A stretch of 32,000 nt of DNA. It comes from Pirellula staleyi DSM 6068. Lineage in GTDB: Bacteria > Planctomycetota > Planctomycetia > Pirellulales > Pirellulaceae. Shown in pieces: positions 2,217 through 32,000 of this stretch. A program made the translations under genes and the position numbers. The number at the start of each line of letters is the position of its first letter. Position 1 is the first letter of the stretch. Where the stretch lies: positions 2,220,001 to 2,252,000 of the forward strand of contig CP001848.1 of assembly GCA_000025185.1 (NCBI GenBank), given 5' to 3'. The notes under the pieces were generated by a model. It searched no databases. It was not told the origin of the DNA and was given only the letters and a program-made list of their open reading frames with translations.

Positions 2217-4805
2217 TCAGTTGGCGGCTGGAACCGATGTTGCTGTGGTTTCCATCGGTGTCGCAGCCGTTGTTTCGGCAGGCTTCTCGGTGGAGGTTGT
2301 TGCCGCCGCTGGTTCAGGAGTCGAAGGCTTTTCAGGGACCGTTTTACCGAGCAAACGGCACGCCTCTTCGAGGACAAACTTGCCGTCCATGAAAGGCTCG
2401 AAACCGATGTCTTGCCAGCGTACATTTCCCGTTGCATCGATCACAAACGTGCCATGGAGCGGCTGGTTTTCGAAGTCATCGAAGCAGCGATACGCTTTGA
2501 ACGTTTCGTTCGTCGGATCGGAAACAAGCTTCACAGGAAGCGGCCCATCTTTGTAATTCTCAATCGAGATTTTAAGTCCTTCGGCATCGTCGCTGCTGAT
2601 GGCGAGTAGCTCGAAGCCAGCATCGTTGTACTGCTGTTTGAGCGCGGCGAAGGCGTGCAACTGCTCGGCACAATGCAAACAGCCGTGACCAAGGAAGAAG
2701 AGAAGCACCACAGGCTTGCCGGTATAGTCGCTCAGCGCGATTGGCTTCCCTTCTACATCTTTCAGGTTGAACGAGAGAGCCGCCGATGGCTGCCAGCGGA
2801 ATGGGCCAAGCGAATCGAGCGCGGGGCGGTTTCCGGTATCGTTTTTAGCAACAGCCGGAACTCGCCAATCGGCCTGAAATCCAAACTCTTGCGCGATCGG
2901 TTCAAGACGCTTCGCCACTGGTGATGCGAGATCGATGTTTGCCGCAATAGTCTGCAGCTTTTCAAGCTGCTTCTTGGCATCCTCTTTGCGATCTGATTTG
3001 TACAGTAGCTGGATGCTCGTCATGTACGGGAGAACTTCGTTCGTACGTGAATCAATTTGCGACTGAGCGGCTTTGATCGCTTCGTCACGTTTGCCACTTT
3101 CGAACTCGACGACAGCGAGCACCAGGGGATCGACATGCCCCGACTTCTTCAGCAGTTCGTGAGCCTTAGTTGCATCGCCAGCGGCCCAGCGCTCGTAACC
3201 TTCTACTTCATCCACAGCCTTGGTGAGGTTGTTGATTTTGGTGTCGAACGCTTTACCCGCTTGTTCCTTCGCCTTCTTGGTGTCCCCTTCGTTCTTCTTC
3301 TCGTCGACAGCTTTCTTTTCAGCGGCGGCGATCGCTTCGTCTTTGCTCTTCTTTTCTTTGTCGAGCTGCGCCCGCAGATCACTCAGGATTTGCAGCCCCT
3401 TTTCCGTCTTACCACTGCGGAATGCAGCCTGGCCGACGTGTCGCAAACGCTTCAGTTGTTCGCCATCATTTTTGGTAGGCTCGAGATATTGCGTCTCCGA
3501 GAGTGCGAGAAGTTCATCCCACATCTCGTACTTTGTAAGGACTTCGAAGAGTCGCTGACGACCAAAAAAAGAACTGCCGCGCGAAACACTGTTGTACTTC
3601 GGATGGCGTGGGAGCTCCGACATGTTCTTCGCCAAATCGAGTGCATCGCTCGTGCGGCCGATGAAAATCAGGTTGCGAATCAGCCACTCGTTGTTGTGGG
3701 CAAAGTTGTGAATCTGATCGGGCAAAACGCGATCGCGCATCATGTGCGCGTGATCGACGCGCGCCGATGCTTCTTGCTGAAACACAGCATCGTCGTAGCG
3801 TTTCAGTCGCGAGTAGATATGCCCTGGCATGTGCCACATGTGGGCAACTCCAGCCGAACTTTGTCCGCAGAGTGCCGCTGATGCGAGTGCGTTTTCAGCT
3901 CGCTCGTAGTCCCACAGGTGAATGCGGTAGTGATGAGCAGGGTGCATCGGCTGCGCTTTGAAGACTTGATCGAGCAGCGCGTCGATTGCCAGATGGCTTT
4001 GAATCGGAAGTCCCGAATCGCGATTCTTCCACAGCTGCAGCGCGAGTAACGCGCGAGCTTCGACATCTTCAGGGAACTTGTACAAAATCTTTTCAAGTGC
4101 GCGGGTGTATGCTTCGGCGCGCTCTTTCTTCTTACCGTTATCGGCTTTGAAATAGGCATCGAGTGCGTCGATGTACATCAGCTCGCGTTCGGTCAGTCCT
4201 TCTTTGTGCTTGACGCACTGCTCCATGAATTTTTTAGCGCGGCTGTTGTTGTCGACGTTTGCCATCGCCATACCCCAATAGGCCATCGCGCACTTGGGAT
4301 CGAGCGCGGCTGCTTGGCGAAACGAACGTTCCGCTTCGAAGTACCAAAAGCCGTGCACCTGCCCCAGTCCTTGTAGAAAGAACTTGTGAGCTTCGGGATT
4401 GGTGGTGGTGATGGGGAAAACGATCTCGGGCATCCCTGGCATCAAGTACGCTTTTTGACGCGGCCCTTCGTTGAACACTTCAGCGTGGAACGAGTGCCCC
4501 GCTTTCACGTCATCCGCCATTGGGTGCGCGGCGTCGTCTTTCTTTTCGTCCTCTTGTTTGGCTTCGTCGGGCTTCTTTTCTTCCGGCTTGACCTCTTCGG
4601 GTTTCGCGTTAGCAGGCTTGGCTTCTTCCGGTTTAGCTGGCTCAGGAGTGGCTTCTGCAGGGGCAGTTGCTTCAGCTGGCTTGGCCTCTTCCGGTTTGAC
4701 ATCGGCAGCAGAGGGAGCCTCTTGTGCGCTGGCGACGAGCGTCAACAAAGCGAGCGCGAGGAGAGCAGATGTTCGCGAGAGCAAGCGGAAGGCGAAGTGG
4801 CTCAT
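2217..4805 (-). CDS. secreted multidomain protein: signal peptide, KPEE/A-rich acidic-basic low-complexity region, His-rich TPR-like helical-repeat region, coiled-coil Lys/Glu segment, C-terminal thioredoxin-fold (AhpC/TSA/redoxin-like, CxxC) domain
   Basis: ATG (cat at 4803-4805) gives MSHFAFRLLSRTSALLALALLTLVASAQE, a signal peptide. The central region has GFWYFEAERSFRQAAALDPKCAMAYWGMAMA and HPAHHYRIHLWD...HMWHMPGHIYSRL. The C-terminal part, KPVVLLFFLGHGCLHCAEQLHAFAALKQQY...LLAISSDD...HGTFVIDATGNVRW, is a redoxin fold with C-L-H-C encoded at 2670-2681. Confidence 0.85.
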   Translation of the reverse strand: MSHFAFRLLSRTSALLALALLTLVASAQEAPSAADVKPEEAKPAEATAPAEATPEPAKPEEAKPANAKPEEVKPEEKKPDEAKQEDEKKDDAAHPMADDVKAGHSFHAEVFNEGPRQKAYLMPGMPEIVFPITTTNPEAHKFFLQGLGQVHGFWYFEAERSFRQAAALDPKCAMAYWGMAMANVDNNSRAKKFMEQCVKHKEGLTERELMYIDALDAYFKADNGKKKERAEAYTRALEKILYKFPEDVEARALLALQLWKNRDSGLPIQSHLAIDALLDQVFKAQPMHPAHHYRIHLWDYERAENALASAALCGQSSAGVAHMWHMPGHIYSRLKRYDDAVFQQEASARVDHAHMMRDRVLPDQIHNFAHNNEWLIRNLIFIGRTSDALDLAKNMSELPRHPKYNSVSRGSSFFGRQRLFEVLTKYEMWDELLALSETQYLEPTKNDGEQLKRLRHVGQAAFRSGKTEKGLQILSDLRAQLDKEKKSKDEAIAAAEKKAVDEKKNEGDTKKAKEQAGKAFDTKINNLTKAVDEVEGYERWAAGDATKAHELLKKSGHVDPLVLAVVEFESGKRDEAIKAAQSQIDSRTNEVLPYMTSIQLLYKSDRKEDAKKQLEKLQTIAANIDLASPVAKRLEPIAQEFGFQADWRVPAVAKNDTGNRPALDSLGPFRWQPSAALSFNLKDVEGKPIALSDYTGKPVVLLFFLGHGCLHCAEQLHAFAALKQQYNDAGFELLAISSDDAEGLKISIENYKDGPLPVKLVSDPTNETFKAYRCFDDFENQPLHGTFVIDATGNVRWQDIGFEPFMDGKFVLEEACRLLGKTVPEKPSTPEPAAATTSTEKPAETTAATPMETTATSVPAAN
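4505..4724 (-). repeat. degenerate in-frame tandem repeats encoding the KPEE(A/V)KPA-type low-complexity segment of the TPR/redoxin protein
   Basis: The + strand repeats variants of ggcttggc(t/c)tcttccggttt, for example near 4614-4640 and 4676-4702. The peptide reads VKPEEAKPAEA...AKPEEAKPANAKPEEVKPEEKKPDEAKQEDEKK. Confidence 0.55.
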
Positions 4806-5213
4806 AAAGCGTGACTCGAACTTACGTGCGCGGGTGGGAAGGGATCGGTCGAAACGCAAAAAGACTGTCGTGGTGGGAGGGACCGCATCGAGCCATTGTA
4901 GGCTCCTGCGCATCAGGTTCTCAAACATTTCCTCGCCCCTTCGCGGAAGTTCGCCACACAAAGTGACTTACACGCCCCATTTCTTCCCGAACCTCGGCAA
5001 ACTCACCTTGTCTGCGCAGGAAGACGTTGCGGGGCCTGCGAGGCGATGAGAATATCGATTAGTGGCTTATCCGCGTCCAAAAGTTTCTATCTGCCCTAGC
5101 TTTATGGGCGACTAAGGGGACTGGCTGAAAATCGCCAGGAAGAACAAACTGAGACACCGACCACGGACCCCCACGCGGGGGCGCTGAACGCCGCCAAGTA
5201 CGGAGATGAGATC

Positions 5214-6203
5214 ATGGCAGGAGCAACCCCCACGTGCACCGATCAAGTGCTGGACCACGCCCGGCGCGACATGCTGCTGCTGAAAGAAGGAATGACCGTC
5301 GGTCAGGTCCTGGAAACGATTCGCAAAAATGCCGACTCCAGCAGCATCGTCTACTTCTACGTGGTTGACGCTGAAGATCGACTCGTCGGTGTGATCCCCA
5401 CACGTCGACTCATCACCGCCGACCTCGAAAAACCGGTAAGCGAAGTGATGTACCACTCGGCCATTGCGATTCCACACGACGCCACCGTGCACGAAGCGGT
5501 GGAGTACTTTGTCCGGCATCGATTCCTAGCGCTGCCGATCATCGACGATGCGGGGAAGGTTGTCGGCGTCGTCGATGTCAGTCAGTTCACCGATGAAGTG
5601 TTCGAAGTCGCGCGGCGCGATCAAGCCGACGCGGTGTTCGAGGCGCTCGGCTTCCATCTTTCGAGCGTGAAAGATGCCTCGGCGCTCACCGCCTTTCGCT
5701 TTCGCTTTCCTTGGCTGCTTTGCACCGTCGGAAGTGGAACGATCTGTGCGCTACTTGCTGGCGTGTACGAAACAACGCTGCAAGCCAATCTAGTAATCGC
5801 GTTTTTCGTCGCACTCGTCCTGGGGCTTGGTGAAAGTGTCGCCATGCAGTCGATGACTGTGGCGATTCAAGTACTGCAAGCTGTCACGCCCACTTGGAGG
5901 TGGTACTTCGGTCGGCTGCTGCGCGAAGGTGCGACCGCTGCTCTGCTCGGACTCGGCTGCGGCGCGACAGTGGCCGTGATTGTGCTCGTTTGGCGACAAG
6001 ACGTGATGGCTGCCTCGGTGATTGGCGGCAGCATCGGAATCTCGCTGGTCCTGGCTTCGGTCGCAGGTCTCACGGTCCCCTGCATGCTGCATGCGCTGAA
6101 GCTCGATCCCAAAATCGCAGCGGGGCCGATGGCCCTCGCGCTCGCCGATTTTTCGACGACCCTGGTCTACTACAGCATCGCAGCTTCGGTACTCGGGCCG
6201 TAA
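5214..6203 (+). CDS. mgtE: MgtE-family magnesium transporter (CBS pair plus MgtE membrane domain), short form lacking the usual N-terminal domain
   Basis: Tandem CBS-like segments are present (VYFYVVDAEDRLVGVIPTRRLI; FLALPIIDDAGKVVGVVDVSQF). They are followed by five hydrophobic segments including GLGESVAMQSMTVAIQ and GPMALALADFSTTLVYY. The frame is open back to 5100 but has no ATG/GTG/TTG upstream of 5214. Confidence 0.8.
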   Translation: MAGATPTCTDQVLDHARRDMLLLKEGMTVGQVLETIRKNADSSSIVYFYVVDAEDRLVGVIPTRRLITADLEKPVSEVMYHSAIAIPHDATVHEAVEYFVRHRFLALPIIDDAGKVVGVVDVSQFTDEVFEVARRDQADAVFEALGFHLSSVKDASALTAFRFRFPWLLCTVGSGTICALLAGVYETTLQANLVIAFFVALVLGLGESVAMQSMTVAIQVLQAVTPTWRWYFGRLLREGATAALLGLGCGATVAVIVLVWRQDVMAASVIGGSIGISLVLASVAGLTVPCMLHALKLDPKIAAGPMALALADFSTTLVYYSIAASVLGP

Positions 6204-19550: not shown

Positions 19551-19844
19551 GGCGACTAAACTTCGATTCGCGGTTAAGCTATGGTGGTAGGTTGCGGTGT
19601 GATAGAGAGGGGAGGAGCGACTTTTACTCCTCTCGCGCCAGATGGACAATCGCAGATCGCTATTGTTCACATAACCAGGATCGCTTGGGCTGTGGTGCTT
19701 GTGAGTTGACTTGACATCAACCGTCAGCCACAGCCTCCTTTACTCGCTATTCGCCACCCCTTACTGCAAGTGGCGATTAGCTTTCGGTTGCGAGTGAGTC
19801 ACCCTAGTCTGATTCGCCTCGCGGCTTCCCGCAAAGTGAATTTC

Positions 19845-20582
19845 ATGAACACAACGATGGTCGACAATCGAGCGGCGGTGGACAAATCGGGCGACAAGGT
19901 GCGTCGCATGTTTGGCGAAATCGCACCTTACTACGACCGGATGAACCACGTTCTATCCCTGAATATCGACCGATACTGGCGTTGGAAAACAGTCAAGCGC
20001 CTCGCCCCCGTCGCAGGCGAGCCGATACTCGACATGTGCACCGGCACCGGCGATCTTGCTATCGCTTTCCTGAAAGCAACTGGCGGGAAATCGGAGATCA
20101 TCGCGTCGGACTTCTGCCGCGAGATGCTCGACATTGGCGAGATTAAAAAGAAAAAACTGACCTCTGGTGAGCAGATCACCTTTATTGAAGCCGATGCTCA
20201 AAACCTGCCGTTCGAGACCGATCGCTTTAGCATTGTGTCGGTGGCATTTGGCCTGCGTAATGTGGCGAGCACCGAAAAGGGGCTGAGCGAAATGGTTCGC
20301 GTGGCACGACCCGGGGGCCAAGTAGCGGTGCTTGAATTCTCTAAGCCCGAGTGGCAACCCTTCAAAGCGATCTACGGATGGTACTTTCACTCAGTGCTTC
20401 CGCGCATCGGACAAAGCTTTGCTAAGAACGACAGCAGCGCTTATAGCTATCTGCCGGCGAGCGTTAGCCAGTTTCCCTCGGGGGAAGAGCTCGCGGTGAA
20501 GATGCGAGATGCTGGACTGAAAGATGTGAAGTATTACCCCATGACCTTTGGCATTGCCACGCTCTATGTGGGTGTGAAATGA
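19845..20582 (+). CDS. ubiE: demethylmenaquinone/ubiquinone C-methyltransferase (SAM-dependent)
   Basis: VRRMFGEIAPYYDRMNHVLSLNIDRYWRWKTV is the UbiE/MenG signature. The SAM motif is ILDMCTGTGDLA, and the sequence continues FGLRNV...EFSKP...SAYSYLPASVSQFP. ATG at 19845. Confidence 0.9.
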   Translation: MNTTMVDNRAAVDKSGDKVRRMFGEIAPYYDRMNHVLSLNIDRYWRWKTVKRLAPVAGEPILDMCTGTGDLAIAFLKATGGKSEIIASDFCREMLDIGEIKKKKLTSGEQITFIEADAQNLPFETDRFSIVSVAFGLRNVASTEKGLSEMVRVARPGGQVAVLEFSKPEWQPFKAIYGWYFHSVLPRIGQSFAKNDSSAYSYLPASVSQFPSGEELAVKMRDAGLKDVKYYPMTFGIATLYVGVK

Positions 20583-21277
20583 GCCTTCCTCTCGTAGTGG
20601 CGATCACCGGTGCCAGTGGTGCCGTGTACGCCGTGCGGCTGCTCGAGGTTCTGCGTGAAGCAGGAGTCGATGTCCATCTGGTGATTAGTCCCAGTGGAGC
20701 AGCTGTCATCAAGCAAGAGCTTGGTGTCGATATCGATTTGGTGAGATTCAGGCCCGATTCCCTCCTCCCTTCGGCGGCAGATTCGGCGGCCGATCCAAAG
20801 ATCGCCGCTGTTCGCCATTTGGCCGGTGTTTCAACGGGCGATAGCAGCGTGCTGCCAGTCGCCACGAAAGCACCGGGAGAGATCATTTACCACTATCACA
20901 CGAATTTCATGTCGCCGATTGCCAGCGGATCGTTCCTCACGCGGGGCATGGTGGTTTGCCCATGTAGCGGCAGCACGATGAGCGGCATCGCCCACGGCAG
21001 CAGTACGAACTTGGTACAGCGTGCTGCCGACGTTCATTTGAAAGAACATCGCCGGCTGGTCTTGGTGCCGCGCGAAACGCCGCTGTCGACCATTCAACTT
21101 GAGAACATGCGCATCGCTGCTCAAGCAGGAGCCGTTGTGCTCCCTGCTATGCCAGGTTGGTATCACGGCGTGAAGTCGCTGCAAGACTTGATCGACTTTA
21201 TCGTCGCGCGAATCCTCGACCAACTCGAGGTTCCACACACGCTGATGCGCCGCTGGGGCGATTCTGCGTCGACCTAA
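20579..21277 (+). CDS. ubiX: UbiX-family flavin prenyltransferase, with an internal insertion
   Basis: VVAITGASGAVYAVRLLEVL, SGSFLTRGMVVCPCSGSTMSGIAHG, RAADVHLKEHRRLVLVPRETPLS and VVLPAMPGWYH match the UbiX/Pad1 pattern. The start overlaps the ubiE stop as ATGA (20579-20582). Confidence 0.9.
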   Translation: MSLPLVVAITGASGAVYAVRLLEVLREAGVDVHLVISPSGAAVIKQELGVDIDLVRFRPDSLLPSAADSAADPKIAAVRHLAGVSTGDSSVLPVATKAPGEIIYHYHTNFMSPIASGSFLTRGMVVCPCSGSTMSGIAHGSSTNLVQRAADVHLKEHRRLVLVPRETPLSTIQLENMRIAAQAGAVVLPAMPGWYHGVKSLQDLIDFIVARILDQLEVPHTLMRRWGDSAST

Positions 21278-24670: not shown

Positions 24671-25049
24671 CGTCCTCCCTGACGACGCACACGCCTCAAG
24701 TCCTGGCCATCGTGGACACGCTTTCCAATCTTGCCAACTGCACAGGTGCAGCTATGCGAGCGCGGTACGACTCGTGCGCGAGGGGGAGTTTAGTGCGCGG
24801 CCGATTTTCATCCTAGATCAGTTTTTTGATCAGCTCGGGCGATTAGCGAGTCTAGGGGGACACGCTCTTAACCAGCCTTTCTCGAGGCTCCAGAAAGCGG
24901 ACTGCTAGCGACCATCGTGACGCTATATCGACCCAGAGATCGCTGCTGTGGAAGGCCGCCGAGTGGGCGATAACTTGCTCGCGATCGCCCAAGACATTCG
25001 CTATATTACGGAGACTCGCTTCCGCTACTCATTTACGCTCGCCCCTTCG

Positions 25050-25682
25050 ATGCACGACGAATTGCCTAACGACGCACACTTGGTCGCAGCTGCTCTCGCT
25101 GGCGACGATCGCGCGTTTGGGGAATTGGCCCATCGCTATCAGCGAGCCATCACTGCTGTCGCCTACAGCCGACTCGGCGATCATGCCTGGGCGGAGGATG
25201 CCGTTCAGGAAGCGCTCCTCGCTGCTCACCGCTGGCTCCACACGTACAACAGCATCTACAGCTTTCGCACCTGGCTCTGGACCATCGTGCTGAATCAGTG
25301 CACCCGTATCGAGCAGAAACGGGGCCGCGCTCGACGGCGTTTTAGCGCGACACTCGAGCAAGCAGAAGCAACGGGACAAACCGTGGCGCACGATCCTTCT
25401 CCGCTGGCCGCGCTCGTGGCCCAAGAGACCAGCGATCACGTGCATCTGCTGCTCGATCGTTTGCCTGAAGGACAAGCCGACGCTCTACGTTTGCGATTCT
25501 TCGGTCAACTAAAATTTGAAGAACTCGCCGCTGCACTTGGACTGAGTGAGAGTGGCGCAAAGAATCGTGTCCGCCTCGGTCTACTTCAGCTGAGTGCTTG
25601 GCTTCAGCCTGCAGCGACCGATTCTACCGACGCTTCACAAGATTCGCCTCAGGTTGCTCCATCACGAGGAGACTCGGCATGA
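25050..25682 (+). CDS. ECF-type RNA polymerase sigma factor
   Basis: ATG at 25050. Region 2 reads FGELAHRYQRAITAVAYSRLGDHAWAEDAVQEALLAAHRWLHTYNSIYSFRTWLWTIVLNQC. Region 4 reads LPEGQADALRLRFFGQLKFEELAAALGLSESGAKNRVRLGL. Confidence 0.9.
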   Translation: MHDELPNDAHLVAAALAGDDRAFGELAHRYQRAITAVAYSRLGDHAWAEDAVQEALLAAHRWLHTYNSIYSFRTWLWTIVLNQCTRIEQKRGRARRRFSATLEQAEATGQTVAHDPSPLAALVAQETSDHVHLLLDRLPEGQADALRLRFFGQLKFEELAAALGLSESGAKNRVRLGLLQLSAWLQPAATDSTDASQDSPQVAPSRGDSA

Positions 25683-26434
25683 AAACCATGCTGTCGTGCG
25701 ATCAAGTGTTCGATGTTCTGACACAGGGACCTTTCCCGCAGAACAACGCGCGCGATGACGAAGTCGAAGTGCATCTGAGCATTTGTCACAGTTGCCGCAT
25801 GTTGGCCGAGGCACTTCGCCCCGCTGTGCATGCTTTGGGAGCCGCTGCAGCCGACGATGCCTCGCGTAGCGCTCTCCCCGAATATCGTGGACGGCTCCCT
25901 TCCCTGGCCTCGCAAACTGTGAGTCTTGCTAGTTCCATCGACGAGGTACTACGCCGCGAGGCCGACGAAAAGCCGTGGCGCGGCGATGCTGTGCAGCAGG
26001 CTCGACTTGGCCAAGCCGAGCAGACCCGAAAAATCGCGCAGCAGTCAGCACGTCGTGCGGCGCAAATTGCCGCGATTTCGCTATCAACAGCCGCTGTCGC
26101 CATCGCTTGTGCAGTCATGATGTGGGTGGGACTCTCGATGAGCTCCGGTCCAGACGAATCGACATCGATCGCTGCGTTTTCACCATCACGAGCAACTGCT
26201 ACCAGGCCACCTTCCGCCGAGGCCCTCGTGCGGCTGGTCTCGCTGAATCTGCCGAGCGACTGTCGCCCCGCACATTCGCCGCTGCTGGAAAAAGCATCAC
26301 GTCACGAAGCTTTCCAGGTGAGTGCCGACTTTGCATGTTGCACGCGCTGCCATCATTCCGCTTCACGTTTGTCGCTGGGTGACAAGTCACTGGCCGTAGT
26401 GGCTCACAGCTGCATCCATTGTCACGAGAGTTGA
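25679..26434 (+). CDS. zinc-binding (ZAS, HxxxCxxC) anti-sigma factor, single-pass, with two CXXCH motifs at its C-terminus
   Basis: The ATG overlaps the sigma stop as ATGA (25679-25682). The N-terminal H-L-S-I-C-H-S-C matches the ZAS HxxxCxxC motif. The TM segment is AAQIAAISLSTAAVAIACAVMMWVGLSM. The C-terminal tail contains C-T-R-C-H (26339-26353) and C-I-H-C-H (26411-26425). Confidence 0.8.
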   Translation: MKTMLSCDQVFDVLTQGPFPQNNARDDEVEVHLSICHSCRMLAEALRPAVHALGAAAADDASRSALPEYRGRLPSLASQTVSLASSIDEVLRREADEKPWRGDAVQQARLGQAEQTRKIAQQSARRAAQIAAISLSTAAVAIACAVMMWVGLSMSSGPDESTSIAAFSPSRATATRPPSAEALVRLVSLNLPSDCRPAHSPLLEKASRHEAFQVSADFACCTRCHHSASRLSLGDKSLAVVAHSCIHCHES

Positions 26435-28798: not shown

Positions 28799-31700
28799 CT
28801 AACGGGCCGTCGCCGACTCACGAACCGCTGTGAGTTCGGCGCTCGATTCTGCTGGCGCGATTTTCATGATTACCGGGCTGCTGGTTGCCCCCAAGTTGTC
28901 GGTCATGTTCACACGCACTTCGGCCGTTGCCCCTTGATACCCAGGGCCAATGTCGAGAGCGACCGATCGCAGGATCTTCTCCGCTATCTCCACCGTCGCA
29001 TCGCGGGTGAATGTGAAAACGAGCGAGTCGCCACTGGCGAGCGTACTTAATGCTTCGACTGCGAGAGTCTCGTCGGCTGAAACCGGTTCTGTGGCAGCCT
29101 GACCTGACTTCATCTCGGCGACCTTCACCGGCGAACTACCCGGTGCGGCGTAGAGGACCGAAGTCCCCTCGATAACCAGCCCGCTGTTGGTTGGGGGAGC
29201 GAGTACGAGCGAAAGGGTGCCGCTCGACGAACTTTCAGCCAGCTCAATCGAAAGCATGCCACCACCCAGTTGTGGCGAGTCGGGATCGCGTATGTCGGCC
29301 AAATGGTCGAGCGTTTGTAGCATCCCTGGTTTCGCGGTCTTCATCTCCGCCGCCATCCGAATCGAAGGGGCAATGTTCACACTGCGCCAAACGAGCGCCG
29401 TTTCATCGGTGCTGCTGGTAAGAATATCGCGTCCATCGGGGGAAAAATGGACCGACGTGATTTCTGCTTCATGACGCTTCAAGCTCAGCACTTCTTTACT
29501 GGTCTCGAGGCACCAGAGTTTCGCGATACCATCTTTACTGCCTGTGACTGCGCGTCGATTGTCCGACGAGATCGCCACCGATGTGACAGCCGCCGTATGA
29601 CCCGACAGCGTGTCGGTTAGTTCGACGGCCGTCATGGCGCTGGGGTCAATTTTAAAGACGCGTGCAATGTTGTCGTCGCAGCCAGTGATCACGCGCGAAT
29701 CGTCGGGCGAGAATGCCGCAAACAACACATCGGCTGGATGTTCGAGAATGCCACCACTGATGGTTGCCAGCGAATCAACGCTCCACAAACGGGCCGTACG
29801 ATCTTCGCTGGCGGTGATCACCCACTTACCATCACTCGAGAAGACGCCGGAATGAACGCGTCCCCGATGCCCCTCGAGAACTCCCGCGAGTTCGTACGTT
29901 GGCACATCGCTACTGGTGTTGATCTTCCAAAGCTTGGCGTTGTTGTCGTCGCCGCAAGTTAGCAGCATCGCCTCGCCGCGTGAGGAAGGTGCAAAGGCTG
30001 CGAAATTCACGGCAAAAGCACGTCCACCCACTTCATGGAGTCGCGACATTTTGAGGAGCACGATGCCGAATTTGTCGGATGCTTCGTCGGTGCACCAGAT
30101 TTTTGCATCGCCATCGCTACTCGCGGTGACAGCCAATTTTCCGTCGCTCGAAAAGTTCGCAGCGGTGATAGCGCCGTGAGGACTGAAGGTCTTCTCGAGT
30201 TCGCCTGTCTCGGCGCTAAGGAGGCGTCCCTGGCTACCACCGACTGCCAAGATGCTCGCCCCGTCGTGCGAACTAATCGCCGACCAAATCGTGCCGCGCA
30301 AACTCTTGCCCGACCATAGCGGTTGCACCTGAGGCGATGCCATGTCCCAGGTCCAAAGGACGCTCGTATCACCCGTGGTGGTTGTGAGTAGTGCTGACGA
30401 TTGGCTGGGGAGCAGGCTGAGACCGGTCGCTGTGCTTCCCGGAATATTGATGTCGCATTCGATGGCTTTAGCGGTGTCGATATCCCAGCTGTAGAGCCGG
30501 TAGCTATCGTCCCCGGACGAGCACATGGTGATCGCCCGCTTGCTATCGGCCGTGAGCAGCAGATTGCGGACACCGTCGGGATGACGGAGTGTCAAGTTGC
30601 CGAGTCGATTGCCGGTGGCGAGATCCCACTGCATCACGGTGTGGTCTTGGCTGGCGGTGAGCAGGCGACCTCCGTCGCGCGTGAAGGCGACTCCCGTAAT
30701 GCCATAGCCAGGTTCGTGAGTGGCAATGCGCGAGTAGGTTTTCCAATTGCCGGTGCTCGGATCGCGTCGCCACAAATGGCATACGCCTCCCGAGTCCCCC
30801 GTGCAGATGCGTAGATCACCCGTTTCGCTATCGTGCGAGAATGTGGCTGTCGAAACTTCGAATCGATGCGCGGCTAATCGAACTGCAGGCTTACTGAGGT
30901 CGGCGAGCGACCAGAGTAAGGCATCTTTGGTATCACTGCCGGTGACGAGCCACTTTCCATCGTCCGAGAGGGCGATCACGCTGATGGTCCCTGTGCCATC
31001 GAAGCGGTGAAGTTGTCCACCGGTGGCGATATCCCAGAGGCGAACGGTGTTGTCACCTGCGCTGGTGATAATGCGCCGATCACCGGCCGGCATGAAGAGG
31101 GCCGAGGTGACGAGAAACTCGTGACCTTCCTTCAGTTCGGTGGCATTTTTCTGCTCGCCAGTGGGGCCACTGATTTCGAGCGGATCGTTATTGAGCGTAG
31201 CCAGCGGCTGACCCGTTCCCAAATTCCAAAGGATGGCACGTCGATCGCGCCCCGCCGTAATACAGCGATCACCCACCGTCGAAAAAGCGGCCCAAAGCAC
31301 CGCATTATCGTGCTGACGAAGTGTGCGTACCTCTTCGTACTCGGGAGTGTTCCAAACCTTCACGCGCTGATCGTGGCTTCCCGAAATTGCAAATTGTTCG
31401 TCGGCTGAAAAGAGACAAGAGCGAACCCAGCCACCATGGCCACGCATTGTTCGCACGAAGGTGGGATCGTCGGGCTTGGCGGTGAGATCCCAAACGCGAG
31501 CTGTGTTGTCGTGGCCGCCCGACAAGAGTTTTTTGCCGTCGAGCGAGAAATGGAGCGTCCGGACTTCGGCGGTATGGCCGACCAATCGCTGCACAGCGAT
31601 ATCACCCAGCGCGTTTTCGGGGATGGGACGACCGAGTCGCTCGAGTTCTAGCTGTCGCTCGACGAGTTTGTAGTCAAACACGCGCACGTCGGCGGGCTGC

Positions 31701-32000
31701 CAAACGAGAATTTCTTTATCCCGACCTGCCGAGGCGACCAGCTTGCCATCGCTCGAGAAGGTGGCGTTGTAAACAGCTTCCTTATGTCCGCGGAAGACGC
31801 GTGGTTTGGGAGGTCCTCCGAGAGTCCACATGCGCACCGTGGCATCGTCTCCCGCCGTCACGAGTTCATTGCCCGAGCTATCGAAACGGACACTCCAAAC
31901 AGGACCAAAGTGACCTCGAAAAGCGGCGATCATTTCGCCCGTGGCGAGATTGGTGACACGCGCCGTTTCGTCGCGCGAACTGCTGGCGAGCTTCGTCCCA
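28799..32000 (-). CDS. very large WD40-repeat protein, N-terminus beyond the window; C-terminal non-WD domain of about 190 aa
   Basis: The reading frame stays open past the track start at 31933 to the window edge (...GTKLASSSRDETARVTNLATGEMIAAFRGH). By eye there are roughly 20 WD40 units, e.g. LVTAGDDATVRMWTL, LLSGGHDNTARVWDL, AISGSHDQRVKVWNT, VITASEDRTARLWSV and AVTGSKDGIAKLWCL. The last 193 aa (28802-29380) have no WD pattern. Confidence 0.9.
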   Translation of the reverse strand, partial: GTKLASSSRDETARVTNLATGEMIAAFRGHFGPVWSVRFDSSGNELVTAGDDATVRMWTLGGPPKPRVFRGHKEAVYNATFSSDGKLVASAGRDKEILVWQPADVRVFDYKLVERQLELERLGRPIPENALGDIAVQRLVGHTAEVRTLHFSLDGKKLLSGGHDNTARVWDLTAKPDDPTFVRTMRGHGGWVRSCLFSADEQFAISGSHDQRVKVWNTPEYEEVRTLRQHDNAVLWAAFSTVGDRCITAGRDRRAILWNLGTGQPLATLNNDPLEISGPTGEQKNATELKEGHEFLVTSALFMPAGDRRIITSAGDNTVRLWDIATGGQLHRFDGTGTISVIALSDDGKWLVTGSDTKDALLWSLADLSKPAVRLAAHRFEVSTATFSHDSETGDLRICTGDSGGVCHLWRRDPSTGNWKTYSRIATHEPGYGITGVAFTRDGGRLLTASQDHTVMQWDLATGNRLGNLTLRHPDGVRNLLLTADSKRAITMCSSGDDSYRLYSWDIDTAKAIECDINIPGSTATGLSLLPSQSSALLTTTTGDTSVLWTWDMASPQVQPLWSGKSLRGTIWSAISSHDGASILAVGGSQGRLLSAETGELEKTFSPHGAITAANFSSDGKLAVTASSDGDAKIWCTDEASDKFGIVLLKMSRLHEVGGRAFAVNFAAFAPSSRGEAMLLTCGDDNNAKLWKINTSSDVPTYELAGVLEGHRGRVHSGVFSSDGKWVITASEDRTARLWSVDSLATISGGILEHPADVLFAAFSPDDSRVITGCDDNIARVFKIDPSAMTAVELTDTLSGHTAAVTSVAISSDNRRAVTGSKDGIAKLWCLETSKEVLSLKRHEAEITSVHFSPDGRDILTSSTDETALVWRSVNIAPSIRMAAEMKTAKPGMLQTLDHLADIRDPDSPQLGGGMLSIELAESSSSGTLSLVLAPPTNSGLVIEGTSVLYAAPGSSPVKVAEMKSGQAATEPVSADETLAVEALSTLASGDSLVFTFTRDATVEIAEKILRSVALDIGPGYQGATAEVRVNMTDNLGATSSPVIMKIAPAESSAELTAVRESATAR

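Follow-up and report, generated by a model that had tools for sequence, protein, structure and literature searches.

A zinc-binding-type anti-sigma factor family of Pirellulales with a putative extracytoplasmic di-haem c tail

In a 32,000-nucleotide stretch of the Pirellula staleyi DSM 6068 genome (contig CP001848.1, positions 2,220,001 to 2,252,000; hereafter, the window), a gene for an extracytoplasmic function (ECF) sigma factor is followed directly by a gene for a membrane protein that ends in two CXXCH motifs. We consider it fairly likely that this protein is a single-pass anti-sigma factor of the zinc-binding anti-sigma (ZAS) type, equipped with a miniature extracytoplasmic di-haem c sensor domain. 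Such an anti-sigma factor would probably let Pirellulales switch genes by conditions that the haem senses outside the cytoplasm. Few bacterial signalling systems are as abundant as ECF sigma/anti-sigma pairs, yet for most of these pairs, and above all for those of Planctomycetes, the input signal is unknown.

The open reading frame (ORF) of the sigma factor matches the Pfam domains Sigma70_r2 (5e-14) and Sigma70_r4_2 (4e-10), as well as Sigma70_ECF, and its product scores 82 bits against the NCBIfam model TIGR02937 (sigma70-ECF; cut-off 42.9). The product reached no NCBIfam curated equivalog threshold and matched no Planctomycete-specific subfamily. The two genes are coupled through an ATGA overlap, in which the sigma stop codon TGA occupies positions 25680–25682 and the anti-sigma start codon ATG begins at 25679. 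A preliminary description of the window had named this overlap, together with a cytoplasmic HxxxCxxC zinc motif, a single transmembrane helix, and a tail of about 85 residues ending in two CXXCH motifs that lie 19 residues apart, the second only two residues from the stop. All of these features are indeed there: the zinc motif is HLSICHSC at residues 32–39, and the tail carries CTRCH at nucleotides 26339–26353 and CIHCH at 26411–26425, with the protein ending CIHCHES. The tail itself, however, is longer than had been described, with about 99 residues beyond the transmembrane helix. All 82 loci that could be assessed have a homologous sigma gene immediately upstream of the anti-sigma gene and in the same orientation (two more of the 84 loci are cut by contig ends).

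A word-indexed protein search returned 75 relatives of the anti-sigma protein. None of them has a precomputed Pfam domain, they are called 'hypothetical' wherever they are named, and those with a taxonomic label come from metagenome-assembled genomes of Pirellulaceae, Pirellulales or Planctomycetaceae. A scan of one genome per species (185,579 species representatives) found 107 stretches with relatives, from which 80 loci were kept, and these relatives are essentially all from Pirellulales/Planctomycetota. The best genome match is just 36 per cent identical to the window protein, and the window's species is therefore not among the 185,579 representatives. The cultured Anatilimnocola sp. NA78 is among the carriers, and its copy shows every part of the architecture. 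When a profile built from just the tail was run against 1.84 billion representative proteins, it retrieved 378 proteins at E <= 0.001; among the best 150 of these, almost all are 200–260 residues long and carry the module at the extreme C-terminus. The alignment on which the conservation counts below are based holds 70 sequences that are 28–56 per cent identical to the window protein (about 30 per cent on average), with the exception of one 98 per cent copy. At least two CXXCH motifs are carried by 199 family members; 170 of the 199 have the ZAS motif, and nearly all of those that do not are N-terminally truncated fragments. The family as a whole has no Pfam or NCBIfam model. One protein of 360 residues (P0194) has the transmembrane helix and the C-terminal haem-motif module, but a different N-terminus of ~150 residues without HxxxCxxC, which is either a different cytoplasmic partner domain or the product of a mis-called gene.

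The N-terminal 72 residues are the best conserved region of the family (66 per cent mean column identity in alignment A3). Invariant N-terminal positions comprise C7, D8, H32, C36, C39 and the block around residues 43–49. Specifically, the four putative zinc ligands, C7, H32, C36 and C39, are unchanged in 70 of 70 members and follow the pattern C-x24-H-x3-C-x2-C, in which the invariant C7, 25 residues ahead of H32, would provide the fourth ligand. An AlphaFold2 (AF2) model has helices at residues 7–15, 24–35 and 37–58, with predicted local distance difference test (pLDDT) values of 85–95, and places the zinc motif where helices 2 and 3 meet. Two soluble ZAS factors align in register on this motif, both weakly: residues 27–46 of ChrR (2q1z_B; E 0.25) and H37/C41/C44 of RsrA (E 0.04). 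The zinc ligands of RsrA are C11/H37/C41/C44, and those of ChrR are H6/H31/C35/C38; the window protein has the ligand spacing of both, shares the C-H-C-C ligand set of RsrA, and has its H32 at the position of ChrR H31. Sub-threshold matches to zf-HC2 (PF13490) occur at E <= 1 in 22 of the 70 members (best 0.0019) and in the family consensus (E 0.022). We accept membership in the ZAS group, despite the zf-HC2 score, because the motif, its spacing and the gene context fit; on motif, position and gene context the protein is treated here as a ZAS anti-sigma factor, with predicted binding of zinc and of the sigma factor. The preliminary description had added that ZAS anti-sigma factors sense through their Zn/Cys site. 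This is true of some (the RsrA-like ones) but not of others, in which the zinc is structural and not sensory.

The membrane topology was assessed from hydropathy and flanking charge. The most hydrophobic 19-residue segment of the window protein spans residues 130–148 (Kyte–Doolittle value of 2.23) and is flanked by four Lys/Arg in the 15 residues on its N-terminal side and by none on its C-terminal side. A 19-residue segment with a Kyte–Doolittle value of at least 1.6 (median 2.2) is found in 69 of the 70 members. The flanks of 15 residues contain on average 3.3 Lys plus Arg on the N-terminal side versus 1.7 on the C-terminal side, and the N-terminal flank is the more positive one in 53 of the 70 members and the less positive one in 4. 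Because of this positive-inside bias and the cytoplasmic location of a sigma-binding N-terminus, the C-terminal ~100 residues are predicted to be extracytoplasmic, and the CXXCH motifs with them. Covalent attachment of c-type haem takes place outside the cytoplasmic membrane.

The linker and loops in the outer part of the protein show little conservation. Against a background mean column identity of 19–26 per cent, eight tail positions stand far above: C195, C220, C221, C224, H225, C245, C248 and H249 are invariant in 70 of 70 members. In orthologs that adjoin orthologous sigma genes, the two CXXCH motifs keep all four Cys and both His, a comparison that the preliminary description had put forward as a check. 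Two features go beyond that description: the first motif is really CCxxCH, with the additional invariant C220, and a further invariant Cys, C195, lies upstream. C195 closes a LxxLxSLxLPxxC segment whose L186, L189 and L191 are conserved in 87–93 per cent of the members and whose P192 is present in 48 of 70. The order of elements in the tail is the LxxLxSLxLPxxC helix, a variable loop, CC-T-[RE]-C-H, a predicted-helical segment, and S-C-x-A-C-H. The spacing from motif to motif is 18–30 residues (mode 19), and 58 of the 70 members have 1–5 residues after the last motif. Matches that at first seemed to cover the N-terminus only also end in CCxxCH...CxxCH, with an inter-motif loop of up to ~55 residues.

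Several comparisons connect the tail to multihaem cytochromes c. Weak matches to Cytochrome_C7 were obtained for 36 of the 70 members (best E 0.0064), and a few members matched NrfB-like or Paired_CXXCH_1 models. A sequence-profile search of the PDB gave marginal matches, mostly to multihaem cytochromes (octahaem and pentahaem nitrite reductases, c555). Among the best 150 of the 378 tail-profile matches, those from outside the family are multihaem cytochromes that match the paired-motif half only, plus one artifact. The cytochromes in question are built of repeats of D-C-T-x-C-H, 19 residues, and S-C-T-x-C-H, and those that were checked pass the Pfam thresholds of Cytochrom_CIII, Cytochrom_c3_2, Cytochrome_C7 and Paired_CXXCH_1. 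An hhalign comparison of alignment A2 with P0183, which is one of these cytochromes (93 per cent probability; E 2.6e-7), is in register and has the same 19-residue spacing, with little covered beyond the two motifs; in it, CCTRCH falls on the YCTRCH of a class III multihaem cytochrome repeat. The artifact, P0076, is the top match of the tail profile, a low-complexity protein of 1145 residues with 19 near-identical CCTACH repeats that contain PPLCCTACHKQDSRKSPP; it probably stems from the translation of a tandem DNA repeat instead of being a cytochrome, and we left it out as evidence. The tail module is best read as a diverged class III-type di-haem unit that now serves as the putative sensor end of an anti-sigma factor. 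Among the tail-profile matches, the module was not found joined to anything besides anti-sigma proteins.

The extra cysteines bear on how such haems might be ligated. In class III units, each pair of haems receives two distal His, but no His or Met column is conserved in the outer part across the 70 sequences. In 14 of the 70 members, the two motif histidines are the only His between C195 and the C-terminus, and 12 of 161 full-length members have no non-motif His anywhere in the outer part. Because a conserved distal His or Met is missing, the module is not a standard bis-His or His/Met cytochrome. Conversely, the number of non-motif Cys follows the number of motifs: there are exactly two (C195 and C220) in 143 of 157 two-motif members and exactly three in 4 of 4 full-length three-motif members. 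The three-motif variants (P0044, P0059, P0184 and P0191 at full length, the fragment P0190, and P0194) have their third CXXCH either inserted between the standard two or added C-terminally, and at both insertion points the added CXXCH comes with its own Cys 8–12 residues upstream, in all six sequences. One extra Cys per CXXCH suggests His/Cys-ligated haems with a thiolate as the distal ligand. A C195–C220 disulfide would also account for the extra Cys of the two-motif form, but it leaves the three extra Cys (an odd number) of the three-motif variants unexplained and is for this reason the less likely reading. His/Cys ligation of haem is low-potential and switch-prone, and in c-type haems it also occurs in SoxA, TsdA, DsrJ and NaxLS. 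In a sensor-type fold, His/Cys ligation of a c-haem has been described for Tll0287 (PMC12889525).

In the mechanism that we favor, the N-in/C-out zinc-binding anti-sigma factor would be co-transcribed with its ECF sigma factor, and its N-terminal domain (C7/H32/C36/C39) would sequester the sigma factor at the membrane. The last ~60 residues would constitute a mini di-haem cytochrome c module derived from a class III di-haem repeat. After Sec-dependent export, haems would be covalently joined to CCTRCH and CIHCH, presumably by System II (CcsBA-type). Among Planctomycetes, the anammox bacteria have been described as having System II (PMC4222556), and short CXXCH peptides are reported to receive haem from CcsBA in vitro (PMC8112865). 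C195 and C220 would each probably pair with one haem, giving low-potential His/Cys haems of a type that serves in redox- or ligand-dependent switches. If the haems changed in redox state, axial ligands or occupancy in the periplasm, the outer domain would be altered or destabilized and the anti-sigma factor inactivated. The most plausible route would be cleavage by site-1 and site-2 proteases, as known from RsiW and RseA, with release of the sigma factor. Thiol oxidation at the C-H-C-C zinc site might, by analogy with RsrA, provide a further input from the cytoplasmic side.

A number of observations weigh against a di-haem anti-sigma factor of this kind. The profile search that the preliminary description had proposed gives consistent pointers to multihaem cytochrome c and to zf-HC2, but they are weak ones, as the family consensus falls short of the gathering scores of zf-HC2 (15.3 vs 22.2 bits), Cytochrome_C7 (16.9 vs 24.8 bits) and Paired_CXXCH_1 (11.4 vs 20.6 bits), and the window protein itself has no Pfam match. 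The similarity to cytochromes lies largely in the paired short motifs and the distance between them, AF2 models the outer domain with low confidence (pLDDT 44–69), and the lack of a conserved distal His or Met speaks against standard bis-His ligation. Support for one Cys per motif from the three-motif variants comes from about six sequences in two lineages. Genes for cytochrome c maturation were found neither in the window nor in the fetched loci (no WWD motif), and promoter analysis of 83 loci yielded neither a GGAAC/CGTC-like bipartite ECF motif upstream of the sigma genes (by k-mer pair enrichment) nor a predictable regulon. Covalent haem attachment is a prediction from sequence.

The six Cys and two His of the tail could equally form metal sites. 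A tail without haem would then hold two Zn or Cu ions, in the manner of a zinc-ribbon-like knuckle pair, or work as a thiol–disulfide switch, and would sense periplasmic metal or oxidative/thiol stress. CxxC-(about 20 residues)-CxxC is the layout of a zinc ribbon too, one extra Cys per CXXCH can be read as Cys3His sites, and there are weak matches to DnaJ_CXXCXGXG (5 of 70 members) and Zf-Nsp1alpha; the sub-threshold cytochrome scores and the lack of a conserved distal His or Met fit metal sites as well. Nevertheless, both motifs, and every third motif too, have without exception a His directly behind their second Cys, which is a haem c signature and not a zinc-knuckle trait, and adjacent Cys and His seldom ligate the same metal ion. 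AF2 also gives helices instead of beta-hairpin knuckles, the motif spacing of 18 to ~55 residues is a poor fit to a compact ribbon, the domain is predicted to lie outside the cytoplasm, where zinc fingers are unusual and haem c attachment occurs, and among 1.84 billion representatives the tail profile retrieved multihaem cytochromes and no zinc-finger proteins. We therefore regard metal or thiol sites in place of haem as unlikely.

A different possibility accepts the haems and assigns the signal to their occupancy. The tail would be an apocytochrome 'fuse': under a shortage of haem, iron or cytochrome c synthase, it would remain unfolded and be degraded by periplasmic proteases, and the sigma factor would be freed. 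The module is indeed minimal (~60 residues for two haems), sits at the extreme C-terminus with few residues behind the last motif, and is probably unable to fold without haem, as the low pLDDT of the outer domain modeled without cofactor would have it. Apocytochromes c are quickly degraded when maturation fails, and in sigma-E-type pathways an exposed C-terminal tail is a classical signal that draws in proteases. On the other hand, no haem-biosynthesis or cytochrome-maturation gene is a conserved neighbor (hemB lies beside the sigma gene in one of 84 loci), and a pure occupancy sensor does not explain two invariant extra Cys; we hold this to be rather improbable. Finally, the CXXCH pair might be a chance or functionless lineage trait of an ordinary anti-sigma factor with a disordered tail, and the poorly conserved, low-complexity linker and loops of the outer part would agree with this. 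However, shuffling the window protein, with its own Cys/His-rich composition, gave at least two CXXCH in a fraction of 6.7e-5 of 300,000 shuffles, the module occurs in 378 representative clusters, and eight Cys/His are invariant where columns average 19–26 per cent identity. The conservation data refute a chance origin, which we give practically no credence. The central suggestion of the preliminary description, a putatively haem-carrying tail that would couple periplasmic status to an ECF sigma factor, is supported, and the checks of conservation, topology (an extracytoplasmic tail, as judged by hydropathy and charge bias) and literature did not refute it.

Compared with known systems, the window protein resembles the membrane-bound ZAS factors RsiW of Bacillus subtilis and RslA of Mycobacterium tuberculosis in its single transmembrane helix and extracytoplasmic C-terminal domain, and the soluble ZAS factors RsrA of Streptomyces coelicolor and ChrR of Rhodobacter sphaeroides in its HxxxCxxC motif with a fourth ligand ~25 residues upstream. 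Like those of ZAS factors, its gene is directly downstream of, and coupled to, an ECF sigma gene. Sequence similarity of the family to ChrR and RsrA is confined to the zinc motif, and none of RsiW, RslA, RsrA and ChrR has been reported with a di-haem c outer module such as the putative one of the window protein. The class III multihaem cytochromes (c3/c7) share with the tail the paired CXXCH motifs 19 residues apart and a high density of haem sites, which are putative in the tail. They differ from it in their bis-His distal ligands, in place of which the window family has two invariant extra Cys, and in being electron carriers, whereas the module of the window protein is tethered to a regulator.

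The concept of sensing redox state or gases through a covalent c-haem on the external side of a signalling protein is shared with the sCache_haem/DUF3365 proteins (GSU0582 and GSU0935 of Geobacter sulfurreducens; Tll0287 of Thermosynechococcus elongatus). The sCache_haem domains have a Cache fold of ~130 residues with one haem and occur on histidine kinases, chemoreceptors and GGDEF/EAL outputs or stand alone (PMC12889525). The window module has ~60 residues, is predicted to be helical, is similar to class III repeats, and would hold two (rarely three) haems. We rejected sCache_haem membership, as there is no Pfam match and two motifs are present instead of a single CXXCH within an inserted helix; the differences in fold, size and haem number place the protein outside that family. 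HasI/HasS and their relatives (cell-surface signalling) are likewise ECF sigma/anti-sigma pairs with a haem-related signal. HasS is a FecR-type anti-sigma factor that is signalled by a TonB-dependent haemophore receptor and itself binds no haem c. Membership in the FecR/HasS type was rejected too, with no FecR match in the 70 members and no conserved receptor gene nearby.

The author of the preliminary description knew of no characterized anti-sigma factor with such an architecture, and full-text literature searches likewise found no anti-sigma factor with CXXCH, haem c or a cytochrome domain. Neither an anti-sigma nor an ECF output appears in a 2026 survey of Cache sensors with haem c (PMC12889525). 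The main text of the ECF re-classification mentions neither haem nor such an anti-sigma factor; the group may be listed in its supplement or in papers on the ECF factors of Planctomycetes (Jogler 2012; Wiegand 2020) with the motifs unremarked. It is possible, although we advance this tentatively, that the protein is the first anti-sigma factor with a covalent c-type haem as its extracytoplasmic sensor, that is, a stripped-down His/Cys di-haem module with one extra Cys per haem, whose input would be the redox status of the periplasm or of the cytochrome c pool, a small ligand or the haem supply, relayed directly to an ECF sigma factor.

Table 1. Coordinates of the gene pair, its predicted domains and motifs, and the downstream reading frame in the window.
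Feature	Position	Strand	Details
ECF sigma factor gene	25053..25682	+	ATG 25053, 209 residues; alternative GTG 24948, 244 residues
Anti-sigma factor gene	25679..26434	+	251 residues; ATG overlaps sigma stop codon
N-terminal anti-sigma domain, residues 1 to ~60	25679..25858	+	Putative ZAS ligands: C7 (nt 25697-25699), H32-x3-C36-x2-C39 (nt 25772-25795)
Predicted single transmembrane helix, residues ~128-152	26060..26134	+	Kyte-Doolittle; oriented N-in/C-out
Extracytoplasmic segment LxxLxSLxLPxxC	26204..26263	+	Ends in C195 (nt 26261-26263); 70-sequence alignment
First putative haem c site CCTRCH (C220 C221 T R C224 H225)	26336..26353	+	Four Cys/His invariant, T222 67/70
Second putative haem c site CIHCH (C245, C248, H249)	26411..26425	+	Invariant 70/70
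Downstream ORF, 318 residues	26419..27375	+	Possible starts TTG 26419, TTG 26431 (TTGA with anti-sigma stop), GTG 26443

In an all-against-all ORF comparison of the 84 loci, no neighbor other than the sigma gene was conserved. A conserved third partner gene was accordingly rejected, and so was a defined operon-level function, because the sigma gene is the only conserved neighbor. The tightly coupled ORF directly downstream of the anti-sigma gene (Table 1) encodes two predicted transmembrane helices followed by a domain of ~230 residues and has no Pfam or NCBIfam match. Its homolog occupies the same position in six loci only, the window included, which places it outside the conserved core; possibly it is a third component peculiar to one clade.

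Upstream of the sigma genes, the sole enriched element is a sigma-70-like TTGACC-yTTTT-N(about 13)-GCGCTATAAT, present in at least 21 of the 83 loci and situated 57–181 nucleotides upstream of the sigma gene (L002, L003, L013, L015, L018, L021, L022 and L026, among others). The element has the look of a housekeeping (sigma-70-type) promoter, not of an ECF one, and an autoregulated promoter of the ECF type was rejected, with only the sigma-70-like motif enriched. The sigma/anti-sigma operon may thus not be autoregulated. In the window, CGCTATAT occurs twice (24921–24928 and 24999–25006), with no clear -35 partner.

Other neighbors vary from locus to locus. In one of the 84 loci (L004, positions 4230–5237), hemB (porphobilinogen synthase, ALAD) directly precedes the sigma gene in the same orientation; the arrangement hints at a haem link, though it is unique among the 84. 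In one subclade (13–18 loci), a divergently oriented gene for a PSCyt1-WD40 protein and a gene for a PSCyt2/PSD1 (DUF1549/DUF1553) protein are syntenic with the sigma/anti-sigma pair and lie 2–4 kb upstream of the sigma gene (L042, L046, L053, L058, L059, L062, L067, L068 and L070, among others). The PSCyt1 region of related genomes also exceeds the Cytochrome_CBB3 threshold, so that c-type cytochrome domains are encoded there.

Within the window, an ORF of 914 residues (2217–4961, minus strand) has a C-terminal AhpC/TSA-Redoxin domain at residues 727–856 as its sole recognizable domain and no Pfam match over its first ~700 residues. Genes for a UbiE/MenG-type methyltransferase and a UbiX-type flavoprotein (quinone biosynthesis), which overlap by 4 nucleotides (19770–21274, plus strand), are syntenic with those of the closest relative (L001, 175–1622); they are followed by a gene for a GT2 glycosyltransferase and then by one for an L,D-transpeptidase (YkuD-LysM), which is oriented divergently from the sigma gene. 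At 28799–31933 (minus strand) lies a gene for a large WD40 beta-propeller protein of 1044 residues. Its counterpart in L001 (9139–12828), called at 1981 residues, has an N-terminal Ser/Thr protein kinase domain, and the window gene may continue past the window edge or be split.

From sequence alone, the family leads to a prediction that is specific and cheap to test: the outer tail should bear two covalent haems, probably with thiolate ligation. The cultured carrier Anatilimnocola sp. NA78 puts that prediction within reach of experiment. If it is true, the protein would be the first haem c-based anti-sigma sensor and its tail one of the smallest natural di-haem modules, and haem c sensing would be added to the third pillar of bacterial signal transduction. 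For the Pirellulales, it would offer a handle on how these bacteria couple periplasmic redox or haem status to transcription.

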